A stretch of 32,000 nt of DNA from Candidatus Saccharimonadota bacterium (GCA_046350815.1 JAXLZO010000001.1:990001-1022000), one strand, 5' to 3'; counted from the first letter of the stretch, positions 5,206 through 32,000 are shown. Notes: generated from the sequence alone by a model not told the origin. Numbers and translations: made by a program.

Positions 5206-5294
5206 ATGAAAAAAATCGATCAAATCTTCGATGAAATACATGACTATGTATGTGATAAAAATGCGACTGCACTCGATCCACAACAAAAAAAGAA
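5206..5294 (+). pseudogene. 5' fragment of a small membrane-protein gene split by IS insertion
   Basis: ATG 5206 gives MKKIDQIFDEIHDYVCDKNATALDPQQKK. The frame then runs into the IS and stops after GLNQLRVILTK. Removing the IS plus one copy of AAAAGAA joins it in frame to 6055..6517. Confidence 0.6.
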
Positions 5295-6047: not shown

Positions 6048-6517
6048 AAAAGAAAACCTTCTATATAAAAGATATACAATATCGAAGTGCAAAAAATATT
6101 GAAGATATACGTCAAAATACTCTTCTAAAAATATCAACTCTTGGTGGAGTATGATTATTATTCGATACAACTCCCACTATCGATAGTATTGCAAAAGGGA
6201 TAATTGCCACGGGATATGCCTTTTATCCATTCCTTCGAGACAAGATAACAAACGATAAAGGTATGCGAGATTTTTATACTATTCTTGGGACATGACTCAT
6301 GCTTTCATCTCTGACATATATTGCAGAAACTTCAGATATAGATGTGGGTGTGCTGACTAATTTTTTGTCATGATTCTACATTATATATTGGATCAACTCA
6401 AGTGATCAGCCAAAAAAGCGAAAACGATGATTACAAGATGAAAGCCTCAAACAAAAACTTCTTGACCTGATAAAACCACTACCAATTGCAACAAAAGCAA
6501 AGACCTCTGAGATATAA
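6048..6517 (+). pseudogene. 3' fragment of the IS-split small membrane-protein gene
   Basis: The frame starting at 6056 is open to TAA 6515-6517 with 5 TGA and no TAA/TAG. Hydrophobic segments include LGGVGLLF, IIATGYAFYPF, LGTGLMLSSLTYIA and FLSGFYIIYWI. Confidence 0.55.
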
Positions 6518-6530
6518 TTTCAGAGGTCTT
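6500..6530. terminator. bidirectional hairpin terminator between convergent genes
   Basis: AAGACCTCTGA-gatataatt-TCAGAGGTCTT is an 11-bp stem. A T-run follows on the plus strand. It lies between the stop of the plus-strand gene (in the loop) and the trxB stop at 6536-6538. Confidence 0.6.
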
Positions 6531-6535
6531 ATAGA

Positions 6536-7471
6536 TTATTTTTTCAAAATATACTCGTGAACACTATGTGCTGCGAGACATCATTCAGCGGCACTCATGA
6601 TAGTTTGTTGAAATTTATTGGAATTGGTAGTAACATCTCCAGCAGCATAAAGACCATCTATATTGGTTGCCTGTGCAGCATTAACGATAATATATCATTC
6701 ATGATCAAGATGTACTCAAAGATCTCGAACAAGACTCACATCTGGAGTTGAGCCGATCGCTACAAATATGCCATCTACTTTCAGAGTATTTCCATCCTGA
6801 AGCACGAGATGATCAACATTGAAATCACCCTCAATCGAGGCAACGCTAGTAGAATAATGAACGATAATATTTTTTGTTTCTTTGAGTTTTTCCTGCCATA
6901 TTTGCTCCGCCTTCATACTATCACCTCGAACTAATAAATGTACTTCTCGGGCAATATGCGAGAGATAAAGTGCTTCTGTGACAGCAGAATCTCAACCCCC
7001 TACCATGGCAATCACCTGGTTCTTGAAGAAATTTCCATCACATGTTGCACAATATGATACACCCATTCCTATTAATCGATCTTCACCTGAAACATCAAGC
7101 TTCTTATACTTGTTCCCAGTTGCCAATATCACGCTTTGTGTTAATTTAACTCATCCAGAAGATGTATGAATAGAAAATATATCACCCTCTTTTTCTATTT
7201 TGATAACTTCATCTATGAGAATATCAGCTCATGATACTTTCGTATGTTCCGCAAAGTGATTCATGATTTCCTTTCCAGATGCAGAAAGAGTCCCTGGATA
7301 ATTCTCCACTTGATGAGATTGTGCAAGTGCTCCACCAGGAATACCACCAATAACTAAAGTATCAAGCTTATACCGAGCAGCATACATACCAGCAGGAAGA
7401 CCAGCAGAACCAGTACCAACAACAATAACATCATAAATCTTACTAGTTTCGATCGAAGGAGTGCTATCCAT
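6536..7471 (-). CDS. trxB: thioredoxin-disulfide reductase
   Basis: 311 aa in code 25. Motifs seen: N-terminal FAD site [15 protein letters not shown], redox centre CATCDG, NADPH site GGGDSA (third Gly is TGA 6992-6994), and C-terminal GLYAAGDV. Track ORFs 7229..7471 and 6716..6916 are same-frame pieces. All gaps were checked for TAA/TAG. Confidence 0.92.
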
Positions 7472-7608
7472 AAAAAGTTTATAAAGTTGATGATTATAGA
7501 GATTTTTTTATTTTTTTCAAGAGATGAATTTTTAGCAGAGATCATAAGTTTTATGAATATTGACAGAATATATTTCTATAATAGTATGAAAAAAATAATA
7601 CCTGTGCT

Positions 7609-8391
7609 ATGACATGAAAAACTCCTGGCGAGCACAAATGAGATGAATCAAAAGTCATCGATATCACCTCACGCCTTCCCATACTTACACCTGAACAAGA
7701 GCGTAGAAAACCAGACGAATGATGACCTATAAATATCGTCCAGTTTACCAAAAAAATGATACAAGATACAATGACACCAAATGAACGAGAGGAATCAAAG
7801 AAATTGGAGAAAAAGCTGAACACACTCTATCTCAGGTTGCATGAAAACATTCAAACCTTTGATACGATCTACAATCAGCTTGGATATATACCAACTGATC
7901 TGAGCGCTTGGGAGAATAACAATCATCAGATATTCACCGAAGTAGCAAGTCTCAAAGGGTATAGGGGATGAATTTGCTCCGAGACACGCTCCATATGTGA
8001 AACAACAGGAGATTATCTCTATACCAGAGGCATTCTTCAGGCAAATTCTGATACAACACCACAGGAACGCATAAGCATACTCACCATTGAAACGTACAAA
8101 GGCATAGAGACAAAAAAAATGAAAGATAATGATATCCCTGATATCCCTGATATACGTTATAAAGGGGTCAACAAATTTACCATTACACTGACACACTACA
8201 AACAACAATCATTGAGCAAAACACGGATTCTCGTACATCTTGGACTCTATGATGAAATGGGTAACCTTCAAGAAATTCTCAATCTGACGAATATTTCGGA
8301 GAAAAAAATTATAGAACTATGCTATATGCAAGCGATTGAAACGGTGCAAGTATTGATACATCAACTCACATCATACATCAATCAAAAGTAA
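7609..8391 (+). CDS. hypothetical protein
   Basis: Track ORFs 7756..7971 and 8119..8391 share a frame and are joined through TGA 7969-7971. The frame is open back to 7585, and the first ATG is at 7609 (ATG 7756 is an alternative start). It ends in TAA and is followed by a hairpin. It contains a DIPDIPDI mini-repeat. Confidence 0.55.
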
Positions 8392-9937: not shown

Positions 9938-12900
9938 TTAGTAAAGACGTGAATAAAGCTTATCTGGAAAATGAATTCTTAAAATAGCCTTGCTACCATC
10001 CATAAGCACAATCACAAGATGCCCAGTATTTGTCACAACTCGATAGGTTAAGCTCGAGTCAAGTCGTGCAAATTGAAGACTCGGTGAAAGTACAAAGAGT
10101 GGAGCTCATTCTTTGGTACGCAGAATATAACCTCCTGGCATATACGGACTGGAAAGTGGGATTTGTTCGAGAACAATCTTTGTGCTATTATCAGCTCGTT
10201 TGTTCGAAAGGAGTTCCATACTGATAGTTCCACTCAACACGGATTGACCTGGCGCAAGGAGTGTAATAGGACGACTTTCAAAAAACGGATCACGTCTAAT
10301 GGCCAGTCTCATAAGTGGCGTATCACCATAAGATACATCGAGTGTAGCAGGACCTTCTGTTGTTGAATCAGTTACAGAAGTGCGTACATTTGGGTTTTTC
10401 GGGGTAACTATTCCACTCATCTCATCAAGAGACGCAATGAGAGATCCTGAGAGAGAAATTTCGAGTGTATTATCTCGTTTTGGAGAATAGTTATATAAAA
10501 ATGACCCGGAAGAAGTAGTGAAAATCGATACTCATTTACTAAGATGTTTGATACCAGATCAGCGCTTACGCATAATATCAATAGGAATATTTGATTTTTG
10601 AACATCTATTGCACCAAGAATCTGTGGTGGATTATACACAATAGTATCAATGGACGGCACTGGAGCGCGGACCGTCACAGATAGATCAATAGGTAGAAGA
10701 AGACCATCTTCCAATGCAAGATTTATTTTTGCACTATACGTACCGAGCGTATCAAAAGGAGCAATCAAAAGCTTTTGACCCGTCGCATCCAAACTCAGGC
10801 GTGAGCTAAGTCCGCTATCCCCTATTACATCAAGTATTTGCGCTGCTTTACTTGGAAGCAAAATATCACTCGGAAAGGCAATATTACTTGCATCATTCAA
10901 TACCATATTGCGTTGATAAGCAAGTCCTGAGAGCGCATCATACCGAGAAGATTTTGCATCGGAAATAAGCATTGGAAATGCCTCCACCGTACGAGTATCG
11001 CTCATATCACTGATACGTGCGTAGGTAAGATTTGGTGGATTTTTGATTGTAACCTCCAAGTGTCCATCTCATCGATTCGATTTCAAAAGCTGAAATCTTG
11101 ATATTCCATTGAGATTGATAAAGGACTCGTTTCATACAAAAGCATGACGTATCTTGAGTTGCGAAGTAGTTTCCATGAGCTCAATGTCTGTATCAGGTGT
11201 GAGCACCATTCATGCTATATCACGAAGGTCCACCTCACGAGATTCAATCGTATCACCCAAGAGTGAAACCTGACCATCAAGTACACGAACCGTTACATCT
11301 TCATCAGCAGTATATGAAGATCAGCCATCGAGAGGTAGAATTGTTGGCTTACCAGTACTCAGAGGTGTGACTTGAATACGAGTTGTACGATCTGTAAAAA
11401 TTGGCTTAAGTTCACTCAGAGTAAATATCTGATCTTTTTGGAGTTGTGTAGAAGTACGAGTGGTGATTCGCACTTTTCATTTACTCGACGAATCAATAGA
11501 TAATCGAGCTGTAACAGCACCCGTTGCACTTGAGAGAGAGACGGTATTATTCACATCCGATATAAGGATAATGCCCTTGGAATTATCTGGTTTTCAGAGA
11601 GATGAAAGTGAGGTATGATACGCTCCATAATCAAGTCTATAGAGATTGTCATTGGAGGTATCAGCATCAAATCAAATCGTCAAATTTCGCCCCTTCATCG
11701 ATGACTCACCGATATAATCAGGAGTCATATGTGATGAGAATCCATCAGGAAAAAGATCTGATATTTGCTTGATATCTGGTGCTGTTTCGCCAGCAAAGAG
11801 GGAAATATACGTACCTTTTGATTTTTTTACATAAATACTATTTCCGTTGATATACAGTACATCTGCTCTGCTTGAATCATTCGTGAGAGCAAATTTCGTA
11901 ATACGAGTGGATGCTGTGAGGCCTTCTGTGGCAGTTGTAAAGAGACGTTGAGCATCACCAGATCGATAATAAAGCCCTGGGTAAGAACTCGGTGTCTGTT
12001 GTGGATTATCTCATGAAGTGAGTGGAGGTGCTGCATCAACTGGAGTTGCTACCGAATTACTGATATTCTCAAAGAGCTTTCAAACAACATCATTCATTTT
12101 TTGAGTACTACTTGACTGATAACGTTGAAGAGCCTCTTCTCGATCATTTCGCTCATGAGAAACATACCTCAAGATACTCGCATCTGAGAGAATCGATGTT
12201 TCTTTTGTTGTTTGAAGAGTATGTATTTGCTCTCGCATCTTTTGATCTTCTTTCATGCTCGCATTGAAGTAGGATCGAATTTGTTCAAATCGCTCAGCAT
12301 TCTCAGAGAGGAGTTGATCTTTGATACGTGTATCTGCTCGAGAGCTTGCAATATCGCGATCAAGTTGACTAGAAATAGTTTGAAGTTTGGATGTGATTGC
12401 TGGCTCATCTAATTCCTTTGATAACCTTTGTAAATCACGTCTTGATTGAGCAATAAAAGTATCGCTATCGAGGAATACACCAGATTGTGAGAGAACTTCA
12501 TTTTCCAATTTTGCGAGTTCACCTGATGCTGTTTGAAGCATAGGAATCATGAAATTAAACTTTTCTTGAAGATTTTTTATTTCTCCAGAATCATTGAGAT
12601 TCACATCGCGATTTATTTGGCTATTGATACGATCAATTTCTTCACGAACTTTCGGTGGAACCTGTTTATTGAGATCAATAATTCGATTTGTATTGAGTTC
12701 TGAAGCTTTTTGATTGATAGATTCTGTAGCTCGCAATCCTATAGCATTCAGAGGTTCGAGCTTTTCTCGAACAAATTTTGCAATAATATCCACTTTTGAT
12801 GTGTAATTCACATAAGATGTAACTTTGATAGCATCGATTCCTGTCATCGGAATATTAGGAATATCCAGATGGAGAAAATCAAGTGATGGAAGCATTGCTT

Positions 12901-15900
12901 GGCGATCAGTTATTTGAGCAATTCTCTCACCCGCATATGTTTCTGGAACAAATGGATTAGTCCTGAGGATACAGAGCATCTTTTTAACGACCTTAAATAT
13001 CTTGAGAACTCAACCAAGTCCAGCAAGTCACATAATATTTGGTATTTTTGGTGGTGGAGGGAGATTTGGGAGGGTAACACCAGGAAGAGAAGGGATATCT
13101 GGAAGTGATGGAAGTGTAGGTGGTGCTGGAATAATATTTGGTACTGCTGGTAATGTGAGACTCAAAGATCCAAGACCAATACTCAGATCCGGCCAGACTA
13201 CCTTTGGGGGGCGAGGAAGCATAAGTGGTTGAGGATTGAGATCAATCACCGGCATTGCAAGAGTAACCCCAAGCCGAATATTATGAATATCAAGAATAAT
13301 ATCAGGCCACTTTGGAAAGATAAAAATTGGTATTTTTGGAATCACTGCACTAATAAGCTTGACTATAAAATACTTGAGATCATAGCGCTGATTAACACAA
13401 GACGAGCACTCTGCTTCATATCACTGAAAAAGATCAACAAATACTTGCCAAGATTGAAGAATAGCCTTCAAAAGAACATACATTTCAACCCATTTCTGGA
13501 AGCGAATACCATTATCCGCAATAAATCAGCCCGTTATCTTTTCAAGTTGTTCAATATTACAAAGTATTTCATAGGCATATTTTTCTTTCCAGGTAAGATA
13601 TTTTTGAATATCTTGTGGGAGACGTTTATAAGCATCAATTGCCTTGAGATTTGCTTCGATGGATTGGCGAAATGGTCCACTATCAAACATGAATTTTTCC
13701 TCAGCACTCATCTTATCATATCAGTTTTTTGCCTTTTCAGAGAGTTGTTCAGGTGTAAGTGGAACCTTCTTGGCTACTTCTGTGACCGTATTACTCAAAT
13801 CAGTAGCAAATTTGGTCCACTCTCGATCAGCAAGTTCCAATTCACGATCTTGAATAACAGGATATGTTACTGGTACATGTTCCTCAGAAATAGTCAAAAA
13901 TGGCAGCGAACCAAGAAAACTATACGCAGCCTCGATTCATGAAAGCCCTCATTGCACCTGATTTTCAAAAGATTTCAAACCATTTGATGCACTCGTATAG
14001 GTTGTACTAAGACGAGTCGATGCAGATAAATTACCACTGAGTTTCTGAAGTGATTGCTCCCGAGATTGATTGAAGTTATTACCTGGTAATTTCTTGATCG
14101 TCTCAGGAGAAAGATCAGAAAAGAAATTCATATCAGGCAATTTAATATAGATAGTCGGGAGAGTGGTGAGCTTTGTTTGAACTTCCTCCATCTGACGATT
14201 GACCCAATCCATAAGAAAGTCAGGAAATCAAGATACACGAAAATTTTTAATCTTTACAATATCATGAAAATCAAAATCACGAATCTTATTAAGATCAAGA
14301 GAGACTTCCAAAGTATCATCACCAATACTTCCATCACCTATAGAAAGAAGTGGTCATTTTTTGGTTTTTCCAGCCGTTAAGAGGCTTTCCGGTATACTTT
14401 TTGGATCACTACTGCTCACGCTAGATATAGTATAGCCATTATTCACCACCTGTGATCTCAGCTCATTTATATCTTTTTCAGTAGGCATCTTACAAGATGA
14501 TCCGTTATAAAAACCACTACTCTGACCACCACTTGTGCTCACGCCCATATTTCGAATATCTCATGATGATCCATCTTTGCTGCAGCTTGCAAGCGGTCTT
14601 GCTGAAACAAGACAGTTTCCTGCAGGGTTAAGCGGCCAGGTAGCATTAAGTGCTATTGGTGAAATATTTGGACCAAAACAAAGTGCCATTGATTTTGCTC
14701 CACTTAATGTTGGAGAAACAAATAATCTCATCTGACTAACACCTGGTGGTCAAAAAATTCATCATGCACCAGCTGCAGAAGGTGGCCAATATGGTATAGG
14801 AGGAATGAATGATGGTATTGTCTGCATTGCAAAAATCGGAACACCCATAAATGGCGTTGGCGGATATGCAGGCATTCAACCAAGAATACGCGGTGCTCAA
14901 CCTGGCATAAGAGGAGCCCAATTCACAAATGTATTCCAACATCACTGTGCACCATATCAACAAGCAAACGTACCTATGAGATTGTCAACTGATTCAGATA
15001 TTTCATCAAATTTCTCATCAGTGAGGAACTTATCATCATTTAATGTGATAGTATTACTGCTCGTATCAAGTTTATAGAAACTTTTATCTTTTTTATCTGA
15101 TTCTGCTTGCAATTCATTTTTATAATCATCTCCCATTTTCCTCATTGTTTCAATAGTACTTGTATCGAGGTTATTTACAGCACCAGTACTACTTATGGAT
15201 ATATCCTTTACATCATTTATTACCTTGTTAATATCATCACTAAAACCGACCCCATTCCCAACTGGTACAGCTCATGGAAGGGTCGTTTTCTGGTATACCC
15301 GTGGGCTTGTTTGATCAAAGAGGATCGATGAACTACCACATACATCACTCGTGCTATAAGCAATCTCACCAAGATTATCATTATCCATATTTCCCACTTG
15401 AAGTGATTTGAGGGAAATTTTTTTGAGCGGAAGTATACTCCGAATCTCAACTTTTTCACCAGGATGAAGACTAATCTCGTGAGTGATGCGGTCATAACCC
15501 GTTACACTCACAGGAATCCAACCACGTGTCTGATACTCTGAAGTACTTCCATCCTTTGATATAACACGCCACTGGTAGGTTGCTTCACCTTGAGTAACGA
15601 TCTTTGGGAGTCGATCAAGTATTTTGACCTGACGATCCACTCAGCTCACATTCTTGACGGTTGTCATCGATGTGAGCTCACCAAGATCTTTCAGGAGTGA
15701 ACTACCTGATCCGCTCAATACCTTTGTTACCTCGAGTCACTCGACAAGTGCACGATCACCACGTACATATGGAATTCATGATTTCTCATCAGTAATAGCT
15801 CGCACATCAGTACGTTCTGGTGAAACATATGAATTTGCAGAGCTTGAACTTGCCTCAAATAAATCTACTATACCGCTGCCACTAGTTGAAACTACTGTTG

Positions 15901-18900
15901 ATGTAATTGGTCAAGCAGTTGCTTGCCTCTCCTGATTATTGGGAATTTCACCATAGAGCTCACTGCGAATACGTGCAGAGATCGGATCTCATTGCACTAT
16001 TGCAGGAAGTATGATATGACTATCAGCAATAGCAACTCAAGCAATATCAGAGCCGTCAGCAATTTTGATCACCATTCATGAATCGATATCCGTCTGATCA
16101 AAAGCAATACTATCATTGCGAAGCGAAAGAACAGATATCGTGCCACGATTATCAAGTGCAACGATATCATCGCGACCATCCTGATCCATATCGTATACCT
16201 CAAGTTGATGAACGATCATGCTGTATCTTGATTGGGTGCCTCATTGAGCTACGAGAATAGGAGTTGGTACCATACGACCACCTACATTCCCATAGAGTGC
16301 AAGATGTCCCGTATCATCAATGAATACTAAATGAGACCCCTTTCCTTTGGAAGAAATCGTTCGAATCGTTTTGAGATTTGCTTGGGGGAGTCTCGCGAAT
16401 ATTCACCTATTTCGTAGAACTCCATTTGTATTTTTAATGAGTCGTAATACTCATGATTGATGAACAGCTATGATGTCATCAAAACCATCTCCTTCCAGAT
16501 CAAGTCGAAGCGCCGAAAAAATAGTATCATTCGCTCCATCATACACTTTTTCTCCTATACTCATATCATAAGTAGCGCTGCGATCTTTTACCGGAAGAGA
16601 AAAAGTAGGATCTCCAAGATGCATCAAAAATATAGAATTCTCACCCACTAGTGCATCACCAATGCGAGTACCTCAAGCGATATCCTGAAGAAATGGTCGA
16701 GATAAATCATCATCTTGCCAAGGACGCGAGCTATTTAAGCTGAGAGAAAGATCGTCAATAGTAATACCTAAGACTGTAGTACCTGGAATAGAATTTGTCT
16801 GTGCACCAACATATCAACGACCGAGAACAATGGATCGATCTCATGGATAGACGACCACCGATTGACGCAAAGTATCTTCAGAAACTGGAGTTGTAAGATC
16901 AGCTTTTTCCAGTGTTACTCATTTATGTACAAGGATCATCTGAGCTATTTCACGATCACCATCATACACTCAAAACCTGATGAGCCCATCAGTGGAAACT
17001 GGACGAAGACTCATTCATGATGCGAGTTCATATTTTCCATCTACTGTTGCTGTCATGAGGATTGTATCATCACGAACAACGCGCATCGCTCACTGCACAG
17101 ATTGGATTTGAATATCACTACTACTTTTTGCGAGCGCAAGGATATTCTGATCAGCAAGTGGCGCGCAAGAATCAATATTTCCAGTACAAGCAATGAGAGT
17201 CCGATCCATATGCGGAAGAGACACCTTTGCAAGAAGGCGACGAGAGGTGCGATCGACAATATTATAACGGAGATATCCATTCGAAATCTCCGTAGTTATT
17301 TCATTGGAAGCTGATCAGATATTTGAGAGCTCAAGCTTACCTGTAGAGAGTACGCCAGCAACTCTCTGTGATCAACCACGAGAACTATATGATGTTACAC
17401 CGAGCACACGACTATCACGATCAAATATCATAGCATCACCCATAGTCTCACCACCATCTTGATCAGCATATGCATCACCAGTCAAAAAAGCATATGTAAA
17501 AGATGGGTTAAGGTCATGAATATCTTTTGGACTGATAACAGCACCCTTTGAAAGAAGAATAGTATTTTTAGAACTTCCATAAATGACATCTCTCAAATTC
17601 GGATCTGAAGCATTGATGATATAACTATTCGCAGAGAGATTACGTGAACTTTGAGCACGCAGAAGTGATCTCGTACCAGCAAGAGTTCCAGTAATATCGA
17701 TCATCCAAATTGCTGGTTGACCTGCAATTTCACCCAAACTCAGTTCGGAACTGACTCCTCCATTATACAAAAGCTTCGAAGCATTAGTCGAGGAGATATT
17801 GGTTGATACAAGACTCATATCAACTTTTTGACCACCCTGACCAAATACAACGTTTCCATAAATATCACGCAAAGATACCTGTACACGACTCGTATCACCT
17901 GATGTATCGAGTGCATCTAGTGCGACAAACATAGGTTGATCTGGTAGTGTCGGAACCGTAGCAGAATATGACCCTGCAAGCCCTGCTACTTGTACCTGAA
18001 TTTGTGCACTTGGATTGGATTTTGTACGAGAAGTTATTTGTACATAAGGACTTACCCCATTGGTCACCTGAAGCGTAGTACCAGAAAGAAGTAATACATC
18101 AGATGAAAGTGTGGATAAAGAGGAAAAATCAGTTGCAACTTGAGCATTTGCATTTTTTATAACCACCCTACCAGAGACCGATTTTCATCATACAACGAGA
18201 GATTGATTATTCTGTATTTCAAAAGTAATTTTGAGGTCTTTTGGGTTTTTTAAGGTTTTTTCGACACTTGATCCTTCATTTAAAGTGGCTTTGATACGAA
18301 TACTATCGATATTCTTATCTGGGATCAAAGTAAGAGCGGTTGATCATACAATAGTCAAATCTTGACGTGCCTTTCCTCATTTAAATTGAGCATTTGTCAG
18401 TTCGACCAAGATATTAGTATTTTGTGCAATATTTCATTCACTATCGAATGCTTTGATCACCACTGGGGTAGAAGATCAGGCTACAAAGTAGTCCGATGGA
18501 GCTACGATCTGGAGACGCACTGGATCAGATGGCACAACACTATATTCAACGATAGCACTCTCTCCATCCTCAGCCTTCATTACTAGTAAATAAATACCAG
18601 TTTTTTTGAGTTCATTTATGAACAATTTCTGACTCAAATCAGTGATATCTGTAGTATAAATACGATTTCCATTCGTTCGATCAAAAATCTCCAGGTGAAG
18701 TTTGGAAGGGTTTCCATCACGACCATAATAACGCAGGCTCGAAAAATCAATGGGCTCATTTGAACGTTTTGATGTTGGAAGACCAAATATATCGATACCA
18801 CTCCAGCGAACATTCATACTGATATTTGCAATCTTTACGCCATTTTGACGAAGAAGTACAAAATCATAGCGAGCATCACCTCGTTTTGGTTGAAAATCAA

Positions 18901-21900
18901 TACCTGCCTCCCCATTACGAAGAACAAAAGAATCTTCTGAATAATCAACATAAGTCTTCTTAACACTAGCATTCTCGATACCATAACGATACAGATCTTT
19001 GCCTGTTTTTGTATCAACAATTTTCATCAAGCGCACACTGTAGAGCTCATTATCAGGAGTGTTAATGATTACATCATTCGCAGCAAGATGAGTTGCAACT
19101 ATTTGATACTTGCCACGATATCATACATCGGTGAGTGGACTTGAAAGCTTGAAATAACTTCCATCCGATATTGACGGAATATCAGGGTCTGGAATGGATG
19201 GAATACTTGACACAAGATCACTCAAGGTAGGAATGCCTACTGTACGAGCCGTACAAACACCAGGAGTAAATGAAACTTTTATCTCATTTTTAATCCAACA
19301 CTGAATCGCTTGAGGCCATTTTGTAAGTTCTACTCCATCAATTTTATTATCCGGACACTCTGATGAAGGAGTTGGAAGAGATGTATTTTTAACCGCAATA
19401 TCAAATGATCAGAGAGCTTGACTCGTTGTGACGATTCTGCTAATATCTTTTTGTACAGCAATATCCTGAGGAGTAAGGTTGATAGCTTTTGCATCCGCCT
19501 TATTGAAAGTTACGGAAAAACCACCATTATTTGCTTCGCTGCGAATGAGTGCTATTTCCTGAGGTTTTCCATAGAGACCTTTTTCAAAAGTATCTCCAGC
19601 AGATGTAAGCTTGATATTACCATTGAGTAAATTGCGAAAAGCAGCATCGTATTGACTCTCAACATCCGTTCGAGTCGTCCATTCGAGAGCAGATATAAGA
19701 GTATTATAGAAATTCGCATCTTTTGTAACAATATCTACCAATTTTGGGGTATCGCTTGGGTAGGTGTCACGAAGAGTATCATAGACTCATTTTTCAGATG
19801 CAGAATAAGACAGTCATGAAATATACGCACTACCTGCGGACTGTGAATTAGGATGTGTTATATAAAAATCATTATCCGATGTGGTTCGCACTAATGTACC
19901 ATCGCTAGTAGTTCAGGTTCAAAAGCTAGCATCTGAATAACCAGCAAAGGGTATATAGCTTGAGTTGGATCGTGTACAAATATTGTCTCATGATCAACCA
20001 ACTTCCTGACATTCATAAACATAATCCTTTGGTTGCAAATTTCATGAAATAGAAGCATAACCAACATAGTCTTTTGAAGGACCAACAAAATAGAGAGAGC
20101 TTATGTTAAATTTTTTCGTTGCCACTCCTCATCATTCAGCGTTACATATAATTGTGTTATTATCAGGATCAGATGGTTGGCAATATTTTGTATTTACTCA
20201 AAAAGCAGTGACAATATCATTGTCAGTAAGACTTGGAGAATAGAAACCATCATTCCATATACTCATGGAGTATTTAGAATTGTATAACAAAGAACTGAGA
20301 CCATTACAAACAAATACAGACAATCCATCAACCGTTTCGTTTCTACAGAGATTGAGCCGTGAAGTTGTTCCAGGTATTGTTGTTGTATTAATGAGAGATA
20401 CGCCTGGTAAATAAATACTATCCCCAATAGTACGAAGTTTATTTGGATGATTCTTTGTGTACGAATCGTCCATTTCTTGCTGTTTGGTCTTGAGATATGC
20501 ACGCACTTTTGCATCAATCACTTCACGACTATCTCCTCGCTCTATATTGAGACGGAAAAAATTTGGAATCTTAAATCTCTCTGTTTTTAACGATGGGGTA
20601 AGATAAGCAAATTGCGGGTCTTTATCTACAGGTATGTTTGGCGTTGCCCCATTCGATCGTATAACAGAAAGCTCTCAAGAAGTAGGTGAATTTTGATAAA
20701 GAAGTGATGGAACGAGTTTATAATCCGCTTGGAATGCAGTTGTTGGAAAATAGGTGTCATTAATAAAACCATCGCATGATTGTCATCAATTATTGGTGTA
20801 AATCTTGATTCCTGATTTGTTCATAAGATTTACACGCCAAATTTGGCATTGATTTCGAAAAGGGATAGTTGCTCCAACAAAATCCTTGTACTGCATTTTA
20901 GAAAGAGTGTTTATATCATTAAATGTTTCTATCGGTTGATTACAAGAATATCTATCTCCGGATGTATTTGACGGATAGTATACGGTATGACTATCTCTCC
21001 AATATCACCTATTTCTCCAAGTTTTTGCTCTATTTTGCACAATATACGACGATGGTTGCTTTATAAGATCATATTGCAAACACAAGGATGGATCATTTTT
21101 ATAGATATTCGCATCAATTTTTTTTGATCCACCAATATCAAATATAGGTTTTACAAAGCCGGTAAATGCAGCTTGTTTTCCATTACGTGTAAGATTTTGT
21201 GCAGTAGAATCATATGCAAGAACCGAGTGATTTCCCCAGTATGATTTTGTTTCTGGTGATGATTCCCCTTCGCTATCATTTGGAAAGCACGAATATTTAC
21301 CTGCAGCGTTGGTAGTTTCATCAGAGAGGAGCTTCGCATCTCAGCCATTATCTCAAGCAGCATTAAATCATTTTGACATCATAACTGTTTGTGTTGATCA
21401 TCGAAAAATGGAGCAATGTTCTGCACTTATAATTTCTGAGGCTTTTTTTCAAGAAAAATAATTATCATAATCAAACCAATTTGCAGCATAATAATTCCTA
21501 CTTGCATCTCATATACCACGATTTCGGTTATTATTGACTTGACCATTTTTATATGTAACAAGCACTGGAGCATCAACCGCAAGATCCTCAAAATAAGGTT
21601 TAATTATTGATGCGAGCATATCATTTGCTCATTTAATAAGACTATTCGCAGCTTCATCCGAACGAGTGACCGATGTAGGAATAGTATCGAGAAGGAGCTT
21701 ATCATTTGTACCTAGATATCGACCCAATCGATATACAAAACCATCACGGTCAGAAACAGATTTTGAACCAAATAATTCAACAAACTGTTTGAGTGATTGC
21801 TCAATAATAGTGACTGACTGAATATCAGGAATATTCGACATAGCACGCGTCGCCGAATCAAGTATATCAGTAAGCTGAGCATTTGTAATGCTTCATGTTG

Positions 21901-22780
21901 ATACTCATTTTTCTTTCGCCAAAGCTTCCACCAAAACATCTTTATAATCGGGATCTCCATTGATAAGATCCTGATTTCCATTCAGAATGGATGAAATTTC
22001 TTGGGACCAAGATGCTGTATAGCGCTTGTATGTGAGATCTTCTCTTGATATCTGTCGGAGTCTATAGGATCTATACACATCCATCGAAAAAGATTTTGCA
22101 TCTTCGACATTGTCGACAACAAAGACACGTGGCTCTTCACTTATAAAATTAGAAAAACGATTTCGTTTATTGGTATAATCATCAAGTTTTGCAAAATAAT
22201 CGAGTATGCCTTGCCTATCAAGGGTAGAATCTCCCGTGTGTGGACGCAGTATTCCATGTCCAATCTCTGATATAGCCTGAGTATTGCTTTTATTGAGGAC
22301 AAATCTTCACTCCTTAGAATCAAAACGAAATTTTCTATCCTCAAAATCAACATAAGGGTATATCGATACTCCTATTCATTCTTCGGATTTAACAACTGGA
22401 AGTGGTACATCTCCAACGATAAGAGTATAGGCGAGTCTTGCTGAAGTTTTACCATCTCATTCATAGTAGAGTTTTTGTTGAATTTGAGCTATTTCTTGAG
22501 GTTTTGTAGTTATAGTAATTGGAACGATCAAGGTTCGTATATCAGGGTTGGTTCGCTCAACATTTTTTGCATACTGAATAACAGCTGTTTCGAGTGCACC
22601 ATTAAATATACGGTCACTCACAAGAATGGAGAGAAGATTTGGACGATCCGGTGCATCCGCAAAAGCATTATTCAAAAATGGTATAGATACCGTCTGAGTT
22701 AGCAAAAAAACAAACAACAAAAATGTTGCCACCGACATTTGCCAAGAAGCATAGGGGTGTTCATGAAACACACTCTTCAT
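9938..22780 (-). CDS. giant secreted or membrane-anchored multidomain surface protein, 4,280 aa
   Basis: Sixteen track ORFs all lie in one frame: 10106..10420, 10559..11059, 12080..12979, 13028..13345, 13526..13711, 13949..14212, 14354..14548, 14957..15145, 15272..15640, 16451..16648, 17372..18166, 18476..19036, 19409..19741, 20198..20521, 21629..21841 and 22457..22780. I read every gap triplet by triplet and found only TGA (hand count 83 in total), never TAA/TAG. The first real stop is TAA 9940-9938. ATG 22780-22778 is followed by a hydrophobic signal or anchor segment. Confidence 0.85.
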
Positions 22781-22938
22781 TTTTCATCGGACCTTTGGAA
22801 AGGTAGCAAAGAGAGATGATCAAATGGAACGAAAGCGTGAGTAATTTCTCTGGAACAAAAGACAATATTGAATTCATTCTATTTTATAGATTGTGAGATA
22901 TATGCAAACAAAAAGACAATGATAAAAATCAAAAAAGA

Positions 22939-22967
22939 TTGGACAAAATTCGAATCATTTATAGAAT
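22939..22967 (+). promoter_or_regulatory. candidate sigma70-type promoter for tRNA-Lys
   Basis: TTGGAC (22939-22944), a 17-nt spacer, then TAGAAT (22962-22967), 27 nt upstream of the tRNA 5' end. Confidence 0.3.
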
Positions 22968-22994
22968 ACCTCGCGTTCACAAATATCACCGTTT

Positions 22995-23070
22995 GGGAAT
23001 GTAGCTCAGTAGGTAGAGCAGCGCCCTTTTAAGGCGAAGGTCCCGGGTTCGAACCCCGGCATTCCCACCA
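22995..23070 (+). tRNA. tRNA-Lys, anticodon UUU, CCA encoded
   Basis: Cloverleaf folded by hand. Acceptor stem GGGAATG/CATTCCC, D arm GCTC...GAGC, anticodon loop CTTTTAA (TTT at 23028-23030), T arm CCGGG-TTCGAAC-CCCGG, then ACCA. Confidence 0.9.
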
Positions 23071-23085
23071 ATCAATCACTCAAAA

Positions 23086-23116
23086 ATCTTCCAGAGAATT
23101 CTCTGGAAGATTTTTT
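23086..23116 (+). terminator. rho-independent terminator after tRNA-Lys
   Basis: Perfect palindrome ATCTTCCAGAGAATTCTCTGGAAGAT followed by TTTTT. Confidence 0.7.
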
Positions 23117-23144
23117 GTCTTAGCGTGTTTATTTTGATTTCCAA

Positions 23145-24453: not shown

Positions 24454-25542
24454 TTACAACCTATTCTTAGCCTCTTCCATAAGACGCGTATACGTCTTAT
24501 ACCGAAATTCCTGTATTTCTTTGCTCTTTAGTGCGGCCTTTATACCACATTCATTCTCAGTCAGATGTTTACAGTCTCGATAGCGGCATTGCCTTGATGG
24601 AATAAGAAATTCAGGAAAATACAGAGAAAGATCTTTTCATGAAAACTCAAGGAATTCCAATGATCGTATACCAGGAGTATCAATAATATACGTTTCACTA
24701 TCGAGAGGATACATATGTGAAGATGTGGTAGTATGTCTTCACTGTCACCCTTGGAGACTCACATGTGACGTACGAGTCACCTCTCATCAGAGCAGAGTAT
24801 TCACGATTGATGACTTCCCCACCCCACTCTTGCCAACAAAAACAACCGTCTTTCCATGGATTAGATCATTAAGCTCATCAATTCCAATATTTGATAGAGT
24901 GGACGTATGCACAACAGGAATATGTAGTTGATGTTCATAATAATCGAGCACCGGATCATCAATCGTTTGTAAGTCACTTTTTGTGATGCAGATAATCACA
25001 GGAATATTTGCAGAAGCTACTAAAATCATATAACGATCGATAAATCCTGGTTGAAATTTTGGATTCGAAGCAGATGCAACAATCACCACAATATCAACAT
25101 TTGCAGCAATTGACTGAAGTACTCGATTGTTAAACCGATCTGTATCTCACTTGTAACGAGCAAGCAGACTCTTTCGTTCGATAATTCATACAGAATCATC
25201 CTCTCATAGTGTGATACAATCACCTATAATACAATGTGGAAAAGCGGAGTGAGTTGAATCCAGATGAATTATACGATGATCTCACGATAAAAGAGAAATA
25301 CAAGAAATATTCTTTCATTTATGAGTTGGGGCTAGGGTGACAATACGAAAAATATCCCCTTCTGGATGGGCAACATATTCATAAACATCTATAATATTAT
25401 TCTTTTCTGACTGAGGTTGAGGTTGAGATTGATATTTCTTTTTCTTTAGAAGATATTTATGATGAGAGGTTCGTGCTGTATAATTCTTTGGAGAATCCAT
25501 GAATGGATATGATAAATATACATCAGTATATAGACTATTCAT
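24454..25542 (-). CDS. rsgA: ribosome small-subunit-dependent GTPase A
   Basis: 362 aa in code 25. Track ORFs 25315..25542 and 24787..25089 share a frame, and the gaps contain only TGA. Motifs seen: NKxD-like ITKSDL, P-loop GKSGVGKSS, G-RHTT (the Gly is TGA), DTPG, and the C-terminal zinc motif CRYRDCKHLTENEC. TAA stop at 24454-24456. Confidence 0.88.
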
Positions 25543-25684
25543 ACGAATTCGAAAGGAGAAAGAGGAAAATTTGCCTCCAAAAAAAGACTCACTATACTGA
25601 GCGAGCTTATTTGAATATTCAAAATATATGGAAAAGGAGCACGGAGAACAAGAAGAAGTTCATACAATATGAAAAAATAAAAAA

Positions 25685-26788
25685 GTGGCGATCGTCGTTG
25701 ATTGGCTATCAGATTGGGGTGGTGCCGAAATGGTCATCTCTGATTTTCTTGAGGTGTTTCCTCAGGCGGACATATTCACAAGTGTTTATATGCCAAAAGA
25801 TCACTCAAAATTCAAGAAATTTGAAAAACATACTATTCATACAAGCTTCATACAAAAAATCCCATTCTTCCGATCACGACACAAGCTTGCACTCTTTCTG
25901 CGTCCTTATGCATTTGAGGGATTTGATCTTGATGAATATGATATCGTCCTCTCCTCAAGCTCAGCTGAGAGCAAGGCAATTATTACAAAACCCGAAACTC
26001 TCCATATTTGCTACTGTCACAAACCAACACGGTATTTTTGGAGTGATACACATGAATATAAAAAAAGATTAGAATTCTGAAAAATTGGGAATTTCTTCGC
26101 TCGTATCTTCATGCCAATAATCCTTCCACGACTTCGAATAGCTGACTTTGTCGCTGCACAACGGGTGGATTATTTTCTCGCAAATAGTGAATGAACTCGC
26201 TCTGACATTATGAAATACTATCGCAGAGAAGCGGAAGTTCTCAATCCAGGTGTCGATCTTGAAACATTTCAGCTCATTGAGAAGAAAGAAGACTACTATA
26301 TTAGCATGGGACGATGCATACCGTATAAAAAATTTGATCTCCTTGTCGACACTTTTAATCATAATGGTAAACCACTTGTGCTTATTACCAATACGGACAA
26401 TGCTCTCTACCGAGAACTCCGTGACAAGTCAAAACCAAATATCACATGGCATTTTAACCCGCCACGTCAAGATATTGCAGAGCTCGTATCACATGCAAAA
26501 GCATTCCTCTTTCCACCAAAAGAGGATTTTGGGATTGTACCACTCGAAGCAATGGCAACAGGAACGCCAGTGATTGCCTATGGAAAATGAGGAGCTCTTG
26601 AGACAGTCAAAGAGGGTGTATCTGGCATCTTTTTTACCGAACAAACAGTCACATCTCTCAATGATGCTATCAAAGAATTTGAATGAATGAAGTTTGATCC
26701 GAAAAAGATCCGAAAACATTCACTCAAATGGGATAGAAAAATGTTTCGAGAGAAATTACAATCGTTTGTGGTGAGTAAAGTGAAATAG
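25685..26788 (+). CDS. glycosyltransferase family 4 (GT-B, group 1)
   Basis: 367 aa in code 25. Track ORFs 25685..26080 and 26210..26590 share a frame. N-terminal VAIVVDWLSDWGGAEMV and C-terminal [29 protein letters not shown] are present (first Gly of the GG is TGA 26588-26590). The start is assigned to GTG 25685 because no nearby in-frame ATG exists. TAG stop at 26786-26788. Confidence 0.8.
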
Positions 26789-26990
26789 AACTAAAAATAA
26801 GAAAACTATGTCTAGATTGAATAAAGAGGCATCAAATGATACAAAAGTACGTTCTTTTTTTAACAAATTGGAATAGTCACCATGGATATGACTACTACCT
26901 CTGACTGTTCTACTACTACCATTTATATCAATTTTCTGTTTCATACTTGTTTTATTAGGTTTCGATGTAACCTCTTGACTAGAAGGATCG

Positions 26991-27479
26991 ATGTTTTTCA
27001 TATGATGAATAGTGATATTTTTCGGTATTATTCAATTGAGCACCCTAGGTTTCGTTACGTTTTTATTTCACAATATTGAGAAGAGCTTTTTAGAGTTTCA
27101 TAAAAAGAAAGACACTCAGAATGTTGATGAAATTACTTCTTCCTTAGGTAGGATTCAACGGAATATGAACTATTTTCGTATGTTTCGGTATTTGTTTTAT
27201 ATTTTATTGAGTGAGAGTGGCTATGAAAAATCCACAAGAGAGTTAAAAAATAAGCTCATTTTTTCGATTGATTTCATCAGAAACATGGAATTACAATTAA
27301 GAGAAGCCATACAATCGCAAACATACATACTTGAATGAGCAAAAAATCAAATTGAACAAAATATGAACGGAGCTTCAGAGTTTAGAGCGATTTGAGATAT
27401 ACAAAAAGAGCGATTACATAAGCAATTAATAGCATTCCAAAAGCTACAAATAAAGCTTTCACAAAAGGATAGTGATTAA
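26991..27479 (+). CDS. hypothetical protein with N-terminal hydrophobic helix and helical C-terminus, 162 aa
   Basis: Track ORF 27012..27338 is extended upstream to in-frame ATG 26991 (through TGA 27003 and 27006). It is extended downstream through TGA 27336 and 27390 to TAA 27477-27479. Confidence 0.5.
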
Positions 27480-27516
27480 GTACACCATACATCCTATTAA
27501 ATAACCTTACCCTATT

Positions 27517-28920
27517 GTGTCACACACCAAACTCACCATCAAACTCCTCACACTTCAACTCTTTCTCCGTGTCGGATTATTTTTTGGGATGCTTCTCTCC
27601 CATCTCCACCATCATGAGAAAGTATCACTCAAAGATATCAAAACTATCATCATTAATCGAAGTGATAGGATAGGTGATGCCGTATTAACCCTACCACTCC
27701 TTGAGATATTTATGAGTGAATGTCGGATGCAATGATACAGTGGAAAGTTTATCATCCTCGCCTCAAAACTGAATCTCTTCGTCTTACAGCCACTCGAAAA
27801 ATACCAATGAGTCACCGTTGAACTCTCTGATATTGATTTGCCAGAATACGTCCAAGGCATTGGATCACTTTTTGCAAAAATACGAGACAGAGTTTTGAAG
27901 ACATTTTTTGTACGAACCAAAAATCCAAAAGATACTACCACACTTCTCTTGGATTTCATGGCGAATGGCGATGCTGCCATACCACTTTCATACAGAGAAA
28001 ATAGCAATCCGCTTATCTTTGGCCTCAATGCACTCACCTCTACTATTCTCTACGATCGATCTCTCCCTCGAGCACTCGTCCATCATTCGCAATTCAATCT
28101 CATTGAAACCTATGTTTCACTTCTCGAAGATGCAATTGTTGAAATGGGATCGCTACGATCCTGTGTATACAATGCCAATTTTGCAAGCTTCTATCCGACT
28201 ATCAAAGAAGTCTACCCAGAACTCTCTCAGGATGATTTTGATATCAATCATCATGCCCTCGAAGAGTGCTGCGAGTGGAGATGATACTATGAGAAGCTTA
28301 ATAAAAATGAGAAGAAAACAGCACTCGAAAAGAATGAAATATTACTCCAAGAATGGAACATAAGAGAACAAGAAAAAGAAAGTATCTTGATTTTTCTTGG
28401 TGCTTATTCCGTGCGTTCACTTCCAGTAGAGACATGGAAAAAAATGATTAGAATGATTGCGCAAGAATTTCCACACAAAACTATCATTCTCATGGATGGC
28501 CCAGAAGATATGATTCTTCGAGAAGTATGGTGTGATACTTTTCCTCACAATGTTATTCAGATCGGAGCTATTGTTCCACTCAAACTCTTCGCACTTATTG
28601 CTTCAAAATGTGGACATGTCATTGGTCTTGATGGTGGAGGTATCAACTTTGTGAGACGTTTTACTCATTCGCTCTCTATTTTCACCCTTGCTAATCCTCT
28701 TGTATGGCAGGCATTTTCTGGGAACAAGGATCGTCATGTCAGCAAAGGGCTCTATGGTTGGTCGATAGGAAGTTTTCATCCTAGAGATGATACTATGACA
28801 ATCAGTGATATGTCACGATCACACTATCTTCTTCCAACATTCAATATTTCAGAGGCAAAGCTTTTCGTAGAAAATATTGATATCCAACTTATTTGCAATT
28901 GGATCAAGACAACAAAATAA
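27517..28920 (+). CDS. glycosyltransferase family 9 (heptosyltransferase-like), unusually long at 467 aa
   Basis: Track ORFs 27517..27735, 27838..28284 and 28387..28920 share a frame and are joined by TGA only. N-terminal IIINRSDRIGDAVLTLPLLE and C-terminal LIASKCGHVIGLDGGGINF are GT9-type motifs. The start is uncertain: GTG 27517 or the internal ATG (MLLSHLHHH...). Confidence 0.65.
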
Positions 28921-29135
28921 GGAAAATCATGAAATGAATTCAAGCTGACAAAATTGTACATAACACCAAAACAACAACTTAAGCAATTCATGATTCTAAA
29001 CTTGATTCAAAAGCTTCCTTCTCTTTTCTAGAACGAACCAAGCTAGAACATATCGAGCAAAAAATTCAGGCTTTGTCAACACTTGGATTTTTCATACGAA
29101 TCGCTACAATGCCACTATAATAACAACTTCACACT

Positions 29136-29359
29136 ATGTGCGGAATATTTTGAATCGTGAGACAAAATGGTGAAGCAAATAAAGCAAAAGAGCTCGTAAA
29201 AGATTTAATTATAGGAATATCACGTCTCGAATATCGTGGATATGATAGCGCTTGAATAGCAATAATTTCACAAGGAAAGACTGATATTCTAAGAGAACGA
29301 GCACTCGGAAAAGTACACGATCTAGAATCTAAGATCGAAAGCAATACAGCAATAAAAAA
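29136..29359 (+). pseudogene. glmS: glmS 5' fragment (glutamine amidotransferase N-terminus), cut by IS insertion
   Basis: MCGIF-G-IVRQNGEA...RLEYRGYDSAGIA with catalytic Cys2. The frame runs into the IS and stops at TAA 29394-29396 after an IS-encoded tail (GLNQLRVILTK). Confidence 0.9.
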
Positions 29360-30112
29360 GGGTCTAAACCAGTTACGGGTTATATTGACGAAGTAACTTT
29401 AGCACTTCCTTATAAATATCTTTTCATTGAATACGACAATTATATCTGAATTCAGATTCTTTCAAAAAATAGTAGAAGTAGACTTTCTTGATTCCATTGA
29501 ATTGAGAGAGTCTTCTTTTGGTATAACTCCAAAATGACTCTATTCAATTAATGTGTTGAGTTCATCTTGCAAATTCATTTGCTCCGTGATGAACACGGTA
29601 GTGTTTCTCATATCCAATATCTACAAGCCCATCATAAGCTCACCATCCATCACTGTTAATCTCAGACTCTTCTATACGAAGTTTTCATCGAATGATTGGC
29701 ACGAGAGTCCTTGCTTTTACATCAGGAACTATCTCAGTATATACTTTTCAGTTTCTTTTGAGTAAACCAAAGACTATTGTCTTCATACCAGCTCACCTTC
29801 CTCTCTTTCATCGGACTCTTGTTGGTCAGAAGTAACTCTCATCTATCTCAACATTTCCAGTCCATATTTCATTCTTTTCTCTCTCACAGAGAAAGGCTAT
29901 CGCCTTTCTGATATATCTATACCAATCCTGTGTTGTTTTTGGATTGAGACCTGTTAATACCGCTGTTTTATCTGAAGTAAAATCCAGAGAAAAATATTTC
30001 ACAATTTCTCTTATTTTTGCATCTCAAATTCGTGATTTTTTCCTATAGGTAGTTTTACTGATCATAGAGCCAAGTTTATGGGATAATTTATCCTGTCAAC
30101 TGGTTTAGACCC
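29360..30112 (-). mobile_element. IS1595-family insertion sequence, copy 2 (753 bp), inserted in glmS
   Basis: Same inverted repeats as copy 1. Flanked by the direct repeat TAAAAAA (29353-29359 and 30113-30119). The sequence appears identical to 5295..6047. Confidence 0.9.
29373..30065 (-). CDS. IS1595-family transposase, 230 aa (identical to 5308..6000)
   Basis: Offset by 24,065 nt from copy 1 with the same translation. Confidence 0.9.
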
Positions 30113-31749
30113 TAAAAAATATCTCCACTGGGGTAGGTATAGCACATACACGTTGGGCAACACATGGATGAGTGGAGATAGTCAACTGCCATCCACATCT
30201 TTCACAAAATGGAAGATTTGCACTCGTGCATAACGGTATTATTGAGAACTACCAAGAATTAAAAAATACACTCACGAGTGAATGAATCATATTTGAGTGA
30301 CAAACTGATTCGGAAGTAGTTGCAAAGATGCTCGAAGGTGCACAAGGAAATACAATGGAGGAAAAGTGGCAGAATATTGCACCAAAACTTCAGTGAGCCT
30401 ATGCATTTCTCATCATCGATAGAGATCAGCCAAATGATCTTCTTGCTGTTCGCAATGGAAGTCCACTTATTTTTGGGAAGAAAAACACGAGCAAAGAATT
30501 CTATTTTACCAGTGATCAAAATGCACTCGCATGATTTGCAGATGATATTATTTTTCTTGAAGATGGGGAATATGTTTGTATCACGGGAGAGACACATAAG
30601 ATATTCTCACCAACCGATGGAGAGCGTAGAGTATTTCAGAATCTCATGACAACAACTGATCAGATATCCAAATGAGATTTTGATCATTTTATGCTCAAGG
30701 AAATATATGAACAGAGTGATGTAATCAAGAATGCTTTGATGGGTCGTATTGACTTTGATACACTCTCTGTCGATTCTCAATCACTCCGTGAGATCAAAAA
30801 TATGGAAGACATTACATCTGTCCACTTTATCGCTTGCGGAACGTCCTATCATGCTTGTCTGTACGGCGCACGACTCATCGAAGAATATGCACACATTTCA
30901 ACATATACGCACTATGGGCATGAGGCTATAGAAGAGCTTCCAGAAGTCGATAACCATTCACTCTATATTTTCGTATCACAAAGTGGTGAGACAGCAGATA
31001 CGCTCGACCCTCTCAAATATCTCAAACATCGCTGAGCAAGAACTTTCTCTATTGTGAATGTCGTTGGATCAAGTATTGCACGACTCTGCGATGCTGGTCT
31101 CTATACACGAGCATGAATCGAGATAGGAGTTGCATCTACCAAGGCATTTACTGGTCAATGTATTGCCCTTCTGCTTCTTGCAATAACGCTCGCAAATACT
31201 CATAATCAGGAAGAAAAAACCAGAGATATGATTTACGAACTAAGTGGACTATCACAAAAAATTGAGAACTCCACACGAGATATACACGCAAGCGTAAAAA
31301 CAATAGCACAAAAAATGAGTCAAAGTCATATTATCTTCTTTCTCGCGAGAGAAATAATGATCCCTATTGCACATGAGTGAGCACTCAAACTTCGTGAAAT
31401 TAGTTATCAACCAACCATACCACTCCCAGCATGAGAACTCAAGCATGGCTCACTAGCACTTATCGACACAGAAAGCGTGAGTATATGCATCATGGGAACA
31501 TGACATACTCTCGATCGTAATAAATCATCTCTCCACGAGATCAAGGCACGTGGCGGATATACTATTGCTATAGCCGATCGTATGATTGATGAAGCTGATG
31601 AGACAATCCTTATTCCATCTATTCACAAAGACCTCTCCCCTATCATAGCAAATATTGCACTCCAACTTCTCTCCTACGAGACAGCTCTTGCTCTCGGACG
31701 GGACATCGATAAACCTCGAAATCTTGCGAAGAGCGTAACAGTGAGATAA
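30113..31749 (+). pseudogene. glmS: glmS 3' fragment (rest of the amidotransferase domain plus both SIS domains)
   Basis: The frame from 30121 is open for 543 codons to TAA 31747-31749 with TGA only. Motifs seen: [34 protein letters not shown] and C-terminal DKPRNLAKSVTV. Deleting the IS plus one TAAAAAA copy restores a 617-codon glmS. Confidence 0.9.
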
Positions 31750-31750
31750 A

Positions 31751-32000
31751 GGCTCTAGACAAGAAGAATTATCTTCTTACACTAGCTCCATATGATCAAA
31801 TACAGTAAAATCAGCTCTGAGAAAATACGAGAAATTTTGAAGCTATTTTTAGGAGACTTTACTGCTACTCAAACATCAGAACTTCTCGAAATATCTCGTA
31901 ACACTATTAACAGGTACTATGCTATATTTCGAGAAGAAATTGTGAGAATATCTATTGAAGAATCATCAAAGTTTTGAAAAGAATTCTGAGAATTTGAAGT
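31751..32000 (+). mobile_element. second, related IS1595-family element, partial (runs off the right edge)
   Basis: GGCTCTAGACAAG at 31751 matches the GGGTCTAAACCAG end of the other IS at 10 of 13 positions. It sits 41 nt upstream of a transposase ATG, the same layout as in the 753-bp IS (47 nt). Confidence 0.6.
31792..32000 (+). CDS. IS1595-family transposase, N-terminal part (HTH region), partial
   Basis: MIKYSKISSEKIREILKLFLGDFTATQTSELLEISRNTINRYYAIFREEI... continues through TGA 31975 and 31987 (FGKEFGEFE). The layout parallels the N-terminus of the other transposase. Confidence 0.65.

Follow-up and report, generated by a model that had tools for sequence, protein, structure and literature searches.

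A very recent IS1595-family insertion in the glmS gene of a Gracilibacterium that reads TGA as glycine

The split glmS gene and its genetic code

The window analysed here, a stretch of 32,000 nucleotides from the single 1,283,673-bp contig of a metagenome-assembled genome (MAG) at NCBI, contains a glmS gene in two pieces, separated by an insertion sequence (IS). The gene starts at position 29136 on the plus strand with ATG TGC GGA (M-C-G) and ends with a stop codon at 31747-31749. Its 5' fragment (29136-29359, plus strand) comprises codons 1-74 and two bases of codon 75, and its 3' fragment (30120-31749, plus strand) begins with the third base of codon 75 and continues to codon 617 and the stop, 543 codons in all. 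A preceding reading of the locus from its sequence alone (hereafter the sequence-only reading) had placed the insertion between codons 74 and 75, which is right as to location but not as to the exact boundary: the insertion point follows the second base of codon 75, where AAT (Asn), cut after AA, becomes AAG (Lys).

The frame of the 5' fragment enters the IS and, translated with code 25, meets a stop at 29394-29396, giving a product of 86 amino acids. Because the boundary falls inside codon 75, one hybrid codon stands between the 74 native residues and the 11 IS-derived codons (KGLNQLRVILTK); the sequence-only reading had correctly described the retained catalytic Cys2 and the 11 codons of IS origin, and had passed over the hybrid codon that precedes them. 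An exact-sequence look-up found the 5' product in NCBI as MFO0764209.1, hypothetical protein U0518_05150. The 3' fragment encodes the remaining glutaminase domain and both SIS (isomerase) domains and is as free of decay as had been claimed, lacking any in-frame TAA or TAG before its stop. A start codon of its own is missing from its 5' end, and the frame is closed upstream by a TAG at 30106-30108.

In silico deletion of 29360-30119 produced an open reading frame of 1854 nt (617 codons and a stop) with zero internal TAA or TAG codons. The restored protein scored 621.5 bits against the NCBIfam equivalog TIGR01135 (cut-off 418) and 642 bits against NF001484, contained GATase_6/7 and two SIS domains according to Pfam, and could be aligned over its whole length to E. 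coli GlmS 4amv (residues 1-616, 398 bits). It has in common with E. coli GlmS (4amv, 1jxa, 2j6h) the N-terminal Cys, the GIAHTRWATHG and HNGIIEN segments, two SIS domains and the C-terminal NLAKSVTV. Unlike in E. coli, the gene here is split at residue 74/75, within the glutaminase domain, and in the 4amv alignment the break maps to a loop ~10 residues ahead of the GIAHTRW segment. A full-length equivalog match with an N-terminal Cys Ntn-glutaminase and two SIS domains was obtained for the restored ORF only; in this genome, with an IS at codon 75, there is no uninterrupted glmS frame that encodes both domains. No glmS ribozyme was found upstream of the gene with Rfam.

The product of glmS carries out the entry step of UDP-GlcNAc synthesis. 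In E. coli GlmS, Cys1 is the nucleophile, and Arg73, Asn98, Gly99 and Asp123 complete the glutamine site. By analogy with the structure and function of the E. coli enzyme, the 5' peptide would retain just the nucleophile, which the 3' part would lack, and the domain architecture suggests that GlmS activity is lost through the split.

Reading of the locus depends on the genetic code. Under the standard bacterial code the region falls apart into short ORFs, and both glmS and the transposase gene of the IS are open solely under code 25, in which TGA is translated as Gly. In-frame TGA codons occur 13 times in glmS and 10 times in the transposase gene, and are found at conserved glycines of GlmS, including those of MCGIFG (ATG TGC GGA ATA TTT TGA), YDSAG and THGG and others, as well as at the motif glycines of the transposase (DESYFG and HINGIE). 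Translation of UGA as Gly is the code of Gracilibacteria/SR1, and the NCBI source name is indeed 'Candidatus Gracilibacteria bacterium'. The earlier claim that excision restores a 617-codon gene holds under this code, a dependence that had gone unstated.

The insertion sequence and its copies

The IS (29360-30112, minus strand) is bounded by terminal inverted repeats at 29360-29374 (GGGTCTAAACCAGTT) and 30098-30112 (AACTGGTTTAGACCC) that are complementary at 15/15 positions. On either side lies one copy of the target-site duplication TAAAAAA (29353-29359 on the left, 30113-30119 on the right), a heptamer that is present only once in the empty-site contigs described below; the coordinates agree with the 753-bp IS and the intact 7-bp duplication of the sequence-only reading. 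Duplications of 8 bp are typical of the IS1595 family. The single transposase gene (29373-30065, minus strand; 230 amino acids and a stop) is intact under code 25 only, and its product matched Pfam PF12762 (DDE_Tnp_IS1595; 5.1e-27, 95 bits, cut-off 27) and NCBIfam NF033547 (160 bits, cut-off 75, profile positions 2-215 of 215). An identical protein is named 'IS1595 family transposase' at NCBI. With a DDE domain, short inverted repeats that bound a single ORF and a target-site duplication, the element belongs to the IS1595 family, and the matches to PF12762, NF033547 and TIGR01135 together bear out the earlier description of a recent IS1595-family insertion that cleanly splits an otherwise intact glmS.

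Within this family, the IS1016 subgroup has been described as having the signature E-DESYFG(53)VYTD----Y(24)HINGIENFWSQAK(14)LFIKECEFRFN and A/T-rich direct repeats of 7-9 bp (PMC12561309). The transposase examined here carries IDESYFG at residue 74, NSDGWGAY at 137, HINGIESFWSYTK at 171 and FLKESEFRYN at 200; these motifs are spaced by 55, 26 and 15 residues, as compared to 53, 24 and 14 in the IS1016 signature. Judged by these motifs and its length, the element has the catalytic signature and the ~0.7 kb size of the subgroup. It resembles ISApl4/IS1016 in being a single-ORF element of ~0.7 kb (712 bp in ISApl4, 753 bp here) with perfect inverted repeats of 14-15 bp, A/T-rich repeats of 7-9 bp, a transposase signature of the form DESYFG ... 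D(4)Y ... HINGIExFWSxxK ... ExEFRxN, and multicopy bursts that interrupt genes. It differs from ISApl4 in its duplication, 7 bp rather than 8 bp, and from its relatives of the IS1016 subgroup in that 10 of the 20 Gly codons of its transposase are TGA. The IS is therefore translatable in a code-25 host only, and is adapted to a recoded host. The closest annotated IS1595-family transposases, in a plasmid collection, showed 51-54% amino-acid identity, pointing to a distinct and apparently unnamed IS; to judge from its sequence, it joins the IS1016 subgroup of IS1595 as a new member.

The window also contains a second copy of the IS at 5295-6047 (minus strand), in the same orientation and identical at 753/753 positions, which is flanked by a 7-bp duplication of its own (AAAAGAA at 5288-5294 and 6048-6054). 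NCBI lists the identical transposase protein under at least 4 accessions on the MAG contig, together with one variant. Copies with ~90% identity and the same termini were found in other Gracilibacteria contigs (JGI, ENA and Logan); the termini are identical in 10 related copies, and clean 7-bp duplications were seen in two of the relatives' copies, TTGGTTA (L070) and TTGATAA (L073). Identical copies at two or more sites, together with the occurrence of occupied and empty alleles on an identical haplotype, imply that this IS has probably been active recently.

Occupied and empty alleles

The junctions were examined in Logan contigs of three runs (SRR26348419, SRR26348420 and SRR26348422), which are assigned to one project or population by their neighbouring accession numbers only; contigs on the left side were reached by using the upstream gene as query. 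In SRR26348422, contig L081 reaches position 29384, 25 nt into the IS, and contig L064 begins 25 nt inside the right end of the IS and extends to 31778. The picture is similar in SRR26348420, where L083 also reaches 29384 (25 nt into the IS) and L063 begins 27 nt inside the right end, again extending to 31778. These four contigs, from independent short-read assemblies, match both IS junctions at 100% identity, which excludes the mis-assembly that the sequence-only reading had allowed for.

The empty site that it had proposed to look for is present in SRR26348419. Here, contig L082 matches 25584-29359 at 3776/3776 positions and passes directly into 30113-30142, and contig L065 matches from 30113 at 1666/1666 positions, so the two flanks of the empty site (GCAATAAAAAATATCTCC) match the window at 100% identity along 3.8 kb and 1.7 kb. 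The 3' fragment is likewise 100% identical to the right-side contigs of all three runs (L063-L065). Of the two possibilities raised by the sequence-only reading, dependence on host-derived amino sugars or a population variant or very recent event, this isogenic empty allele favors the second. The overlap between L082 and L065 is exactly 30 nt long (k-1, with the Logan k of 31) and lies at the first bases that are common to both alleles. Such an overlap fits an assembly graph that holds both alleles, suggesting that a minority of occupied alleles is present in SRR26348419 as well. From the paths that the Logan assembler retained in each run, we infer that the occupied allele dominates SRR26348420 and SRR26348422 and the intact gene dominates SRR26348419.

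Three further searches were negative. A protein search with the 86-aa 5' fragment returned the NCBI entry itself only, with no partial left-junction products; truncated 5' products of guessed lengths (74, 82, 83 and 84 aa) had no exact match in the protein collection; and a literature search found no papers on the run and assembly accessions.

Comparison with related strains, which had also been suggested earlier, showed the empty site in all seven contigs obtained, six of them from five run or assembly sets (L060, L061, L062, L066, L067 and L068) and one from ENA (L080). These contigs have ~95-99.8% nucleotide identity to the window over long aligned flanks, apart from one 281-nt stretch just upstream of the site that shows 92% identity in L062 and L080. 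L080 was the sole contig recovered from a scan of metagenome contigs with a 33-mer of the right flank, and it is chimeric from the conserved HTRWATHG region onward. The alignments of the relatives stop at 29359 and restart at 30113, with a 7-nt overlap that corresponds to a single TAAAAAA, and their empty-site sequence is exactly the in silico excision product. The insertion at this glmS site was absent in all other strains compared.

The gene is also intact in a sister species (L069), at 79% amino-acid identity. A GlmS of 472 aa from this species (P0003) was considered as a second disruption and rejected as a gene-calling artefact, the gene being intact under code 25. A protein search with the restored GlmS retrieved a cluster from the same species, in which every full-length member has 617 aa; the apparent 97% identity of this cluster results mostly from these genes having been called with TGA as Trp. 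In the more divergent strains, codon differences were synonymous more often than nonsynonymous (29:8, 30:8 and 42:15), which fits purifying selection on glmS. A scan of GTDB representatives with the restored GlmS returned only relatives at 41% identity or less, indicating that neither the source genome nor a close relative belongs to this set.

Explanations for the split locus and the element beyond it

Taken together, the evidence makes it very probable that a DDE transposase inserted the IS into an A-rich heptamer very recently, and that the resulting null glmS allele still segregates in the population. According to this explanation, a multicopy and currently active IS of the IS1595 family (IS1016-like) would have transposed into TAAAAAA within codon 75 of glmS, in a Gracilibacteria host lineage that reads TGA as glycine. 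The transposase presumably cuts with a 7-bp stagger, with repair then duplicating the heptamer. The allele would be null in both halves, since the 86-aa peptide would carry the nucleophile Cys without the rest of the glutaminase fold, and the 543-codon 3' part would have neither its own start codon nor the nucleophile. The empty-site haplotype would still be circulating in what appears, from the neighbouring run accessions, to be the same population, and the loss may be tolerated through amino sugars derived from the host or prey. There are zero substitutions between the two IS copies of the window and between the occupied and empty haplotypes, which argues that the insertion is very recent. 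No second glmS from the MAG contig appeared among the best 120 GlmS matches listed, which is weak evidence as to its absence. A point against this explanation is that the empty allele might in principle be a revertant formed by precise excision, and not the ancestral state.

It is possible, although we consider it doubtful, that the loss is adaptive or neutral and forms part of an ongoing genome reduction, with the knockout nearing fixation in cells that take GlcN, GlcNAc or UDP-GlcNAc from their host or prey. The occupied allele is the sole one assembled in two of the three neighbouring runs and in the MAG, which suggests that its carriers are viable, at least transiently, and a supply of amino sugars from host or prey would plausibly explain that viability. 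There is also a precedent in the prediction, for another closed Gracilibacteria genome, of peptidoglycan synthesis that relies on external UDP-GlcNAc (bioRxiv 10.1101/595074). However, every related strain and the sister species keep an intact glmS with an excess of synonymous differences, an isogenic intact allele persists, and Pfam and NCBIfam searches revealed no amino-sugar salvage genes in the 32-kb window. That hexosamines taken from the cells on which this Gracilibacterium lives make the knockout tolerable, and perhaps allow it to spread, is put forward as a tentative proposal.

Considerably less probable is a reversible switch, in which the IS would insert and excise precisely at the heptamer, glmS would be toggled, and the empty allele of SRR26348419 would be a revertant. 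The coexistence of occupied and empty alleles on identical haplotypes would fit such a switch, as would the break between L082 and L065 at 30113-30142, which in a k = 31 graph suggests both alleles within one run. Nevertheless, persistence of the ancestral allele accounts for the same data more simply, no other strain carries the insertion, neither an excision footprint nor a circular junction was seen, and DDE insertion sequences in general rarely excise with precision.

We attach slightly less weight still to the idea that the split locus is partly functional, for instance if translation of the 3' fragment began at an internal start and its SIS domains worked as an ammonia-dependent GlcN6P synthase or as a deaminase of the NagB-II/GlmD type. 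The SIS region does match NagB-II (NF046059, 77 bits) and GlmD (NF041128, 69 bits), but these scores are sub-threshold, far under the curated cut-offs of 430 and 580 bits, and the absence of decay in the 3' fragment is expected anyway of so recent an event. An outward promoter that would drive the 3' fragment is unsupported, promoter-like sites around the IS (consensus matches only) being no commoner than in shuffled sequence (5 as compared to 5.2). A terminator-like hairpin at 29480-29513 on the plus strand, also a consensus match, is positioned downstream of the glmS promoter and ahead of the 3' fragment, and would oppose read-through into the latter. In addition, bacterial GlmS is not known to use free ammonia.

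Finally, an assembly artefact, in which one copy of the repeat, collapsed or misplaced, would have been joined into glmS and the insertion would exist in no real cell, is refuted, for although a multicopy IS with identical copies is a classic source of mis-joins, both junctions were recovered at 100% in k-mer assemblies of two separate runs, and perfect duplication of exactly the heptamer that every empty site contains once marks true transposition and not a mis-join.

A recent insertion that still segregates shares some features with IS inactivation in reducing, host-dependent bacteria: an active IS expansion hits a biosynthetic gene and leaves its two halves pristine, in a lineage thought to depend on other cells. 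It differs from such inactivation in being still polymorphic, with an isogenic intact allele present. Given this polymorphism at the strain level, the glmS gap in the MAG is no basis for assigning a metabolic trait to the lineage in pathway reconstruction. The phenomenon is an ordinary IS knockout of modest, local interest; the mechanism is textbook IS biology, so no concept is changed and its value is local. Part of that value lies in the occupied and empty haplotypes, whose coexistence offers a natural marker to find out if a host-dependent Gracilibacterium can dispense with making amino sugars de novo. If hexosamines are indeed taken up, the locus would show reductive evolution under way in a CPR bacterium, in which a code-25-adapted IS removes the entry step to UDP-GlcNAc while both alleles coexist, and the two alleles would form a natural isogenic pair (glmS+/glmS-) with which host dependence could be tested.

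The activity of an IS whose transposase needs TGA to be read as Gly suggests that mobile elements proliferate inside recoded CPR genomes. A different element begins one base past the glmS stop (31751-32000, plus strand) and is cut by the end of the window, so that its start only is visible, with the terminus GGCTCTAGAC and a transposase N-terminus from 31792. Both resemble those of the IS in glmS, and the element therefore appears to be IS1595-like, while its 69-aa transposase fragment gave no Pfam match and no meaningful NCBIfam match. The Logan contigs L063-L065 all break 28-30 nt into this element, as expected of a repeat.

Recoding of the IS and its copies

Genetic code 25, in which TGA is read as glycine, is used across the entire window (1-32000; for example, TGA at 29151-29153), including the IS1595-family element that splits glmS. 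Half of the glycine codons in the transposase gene of this IS (10 of 20; 29373-30065, minus strand) are TGA, some of them within the motifs DESYFG and HINGIE. Only a host with this recoding can therefore translate the element. On the plus strand, antisense to its transposase gene, the IS carries a terminator-like hairpin of 15 pairs followed by a T-run (29480-29513), which may keep glmS transcription from running on into the element.

A second copy, identical to the glmS IS at 753/753 positions, lies at 5295-6047 between target-site duplications at 5288-5294 and 6048-6054. This copy may also interrupt a gene: its in silico excision brings MKKIDQIF...DPQQKKK and TFYIKDIQ...KTSEI into one frame, yielding a joined ORF of about 190 aa. 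Among related copies on other contigs, that in L073 (around 3954-4706) is three bases short at its left end, where the initial GGG is missing, and is nevertheless flanked by a clean 7-bp duplication, TTGATAA. No matching duplication was found around several others (L071, L072, L074-L079), which could reflect recombination between copies or assembly mis-joins.

The site immediately 3' of glmS

Comparison with contigs of related strains that carry an uninterrupted glmS revealed three different strain states at the base or two directly after the glmS stop codon. In the window, a second, IS1595-like element follows (31750-32000; GGCTCTAGAC...); two of the related contigs (L060 and L061) instead continue into another repeat, TGTTAAATTGCAGCG..., and both end 30 nt into it; in four more (L062 and L066-L068) the gene is followed by plain unique sequence. 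From these three states, the position looks like an insertion hot spot, reminiscent by analogy of the Tn7 attachment site. A further empty-site contig, L080 (ERZ650309 NODE_3651), is chimeric: beyond the conserved stretch coding for HTRWATHG, its sequence is that of glmS from an unrelated bacterium using the standard code, and this foreign part makes up roughly the final 690 nt when read in the direction of glmS.

The glmS neighbourhood and a giant ORF

Two genes upstream of the intact glmS of the sister species (L069), a glycosyltransferase (5431-7953) carries a fused UDP-GlcNAc 2-epimerase domain (PF02350); its homologue in the window (25484-26788) has GT4 domains only. This hints at a role of the neighbourhood in surface polymers containing amino sugars.

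Further upstream, a minus-strand ORF of about 4,390 codons from stop to stop fills 13 kb (9938-23119). At its 5' extremity the ORF runs across a tRNA-Lys(UUU) gene on the opposite, plus strand (22995-23070), so that the real start must lie further inside the ORF.
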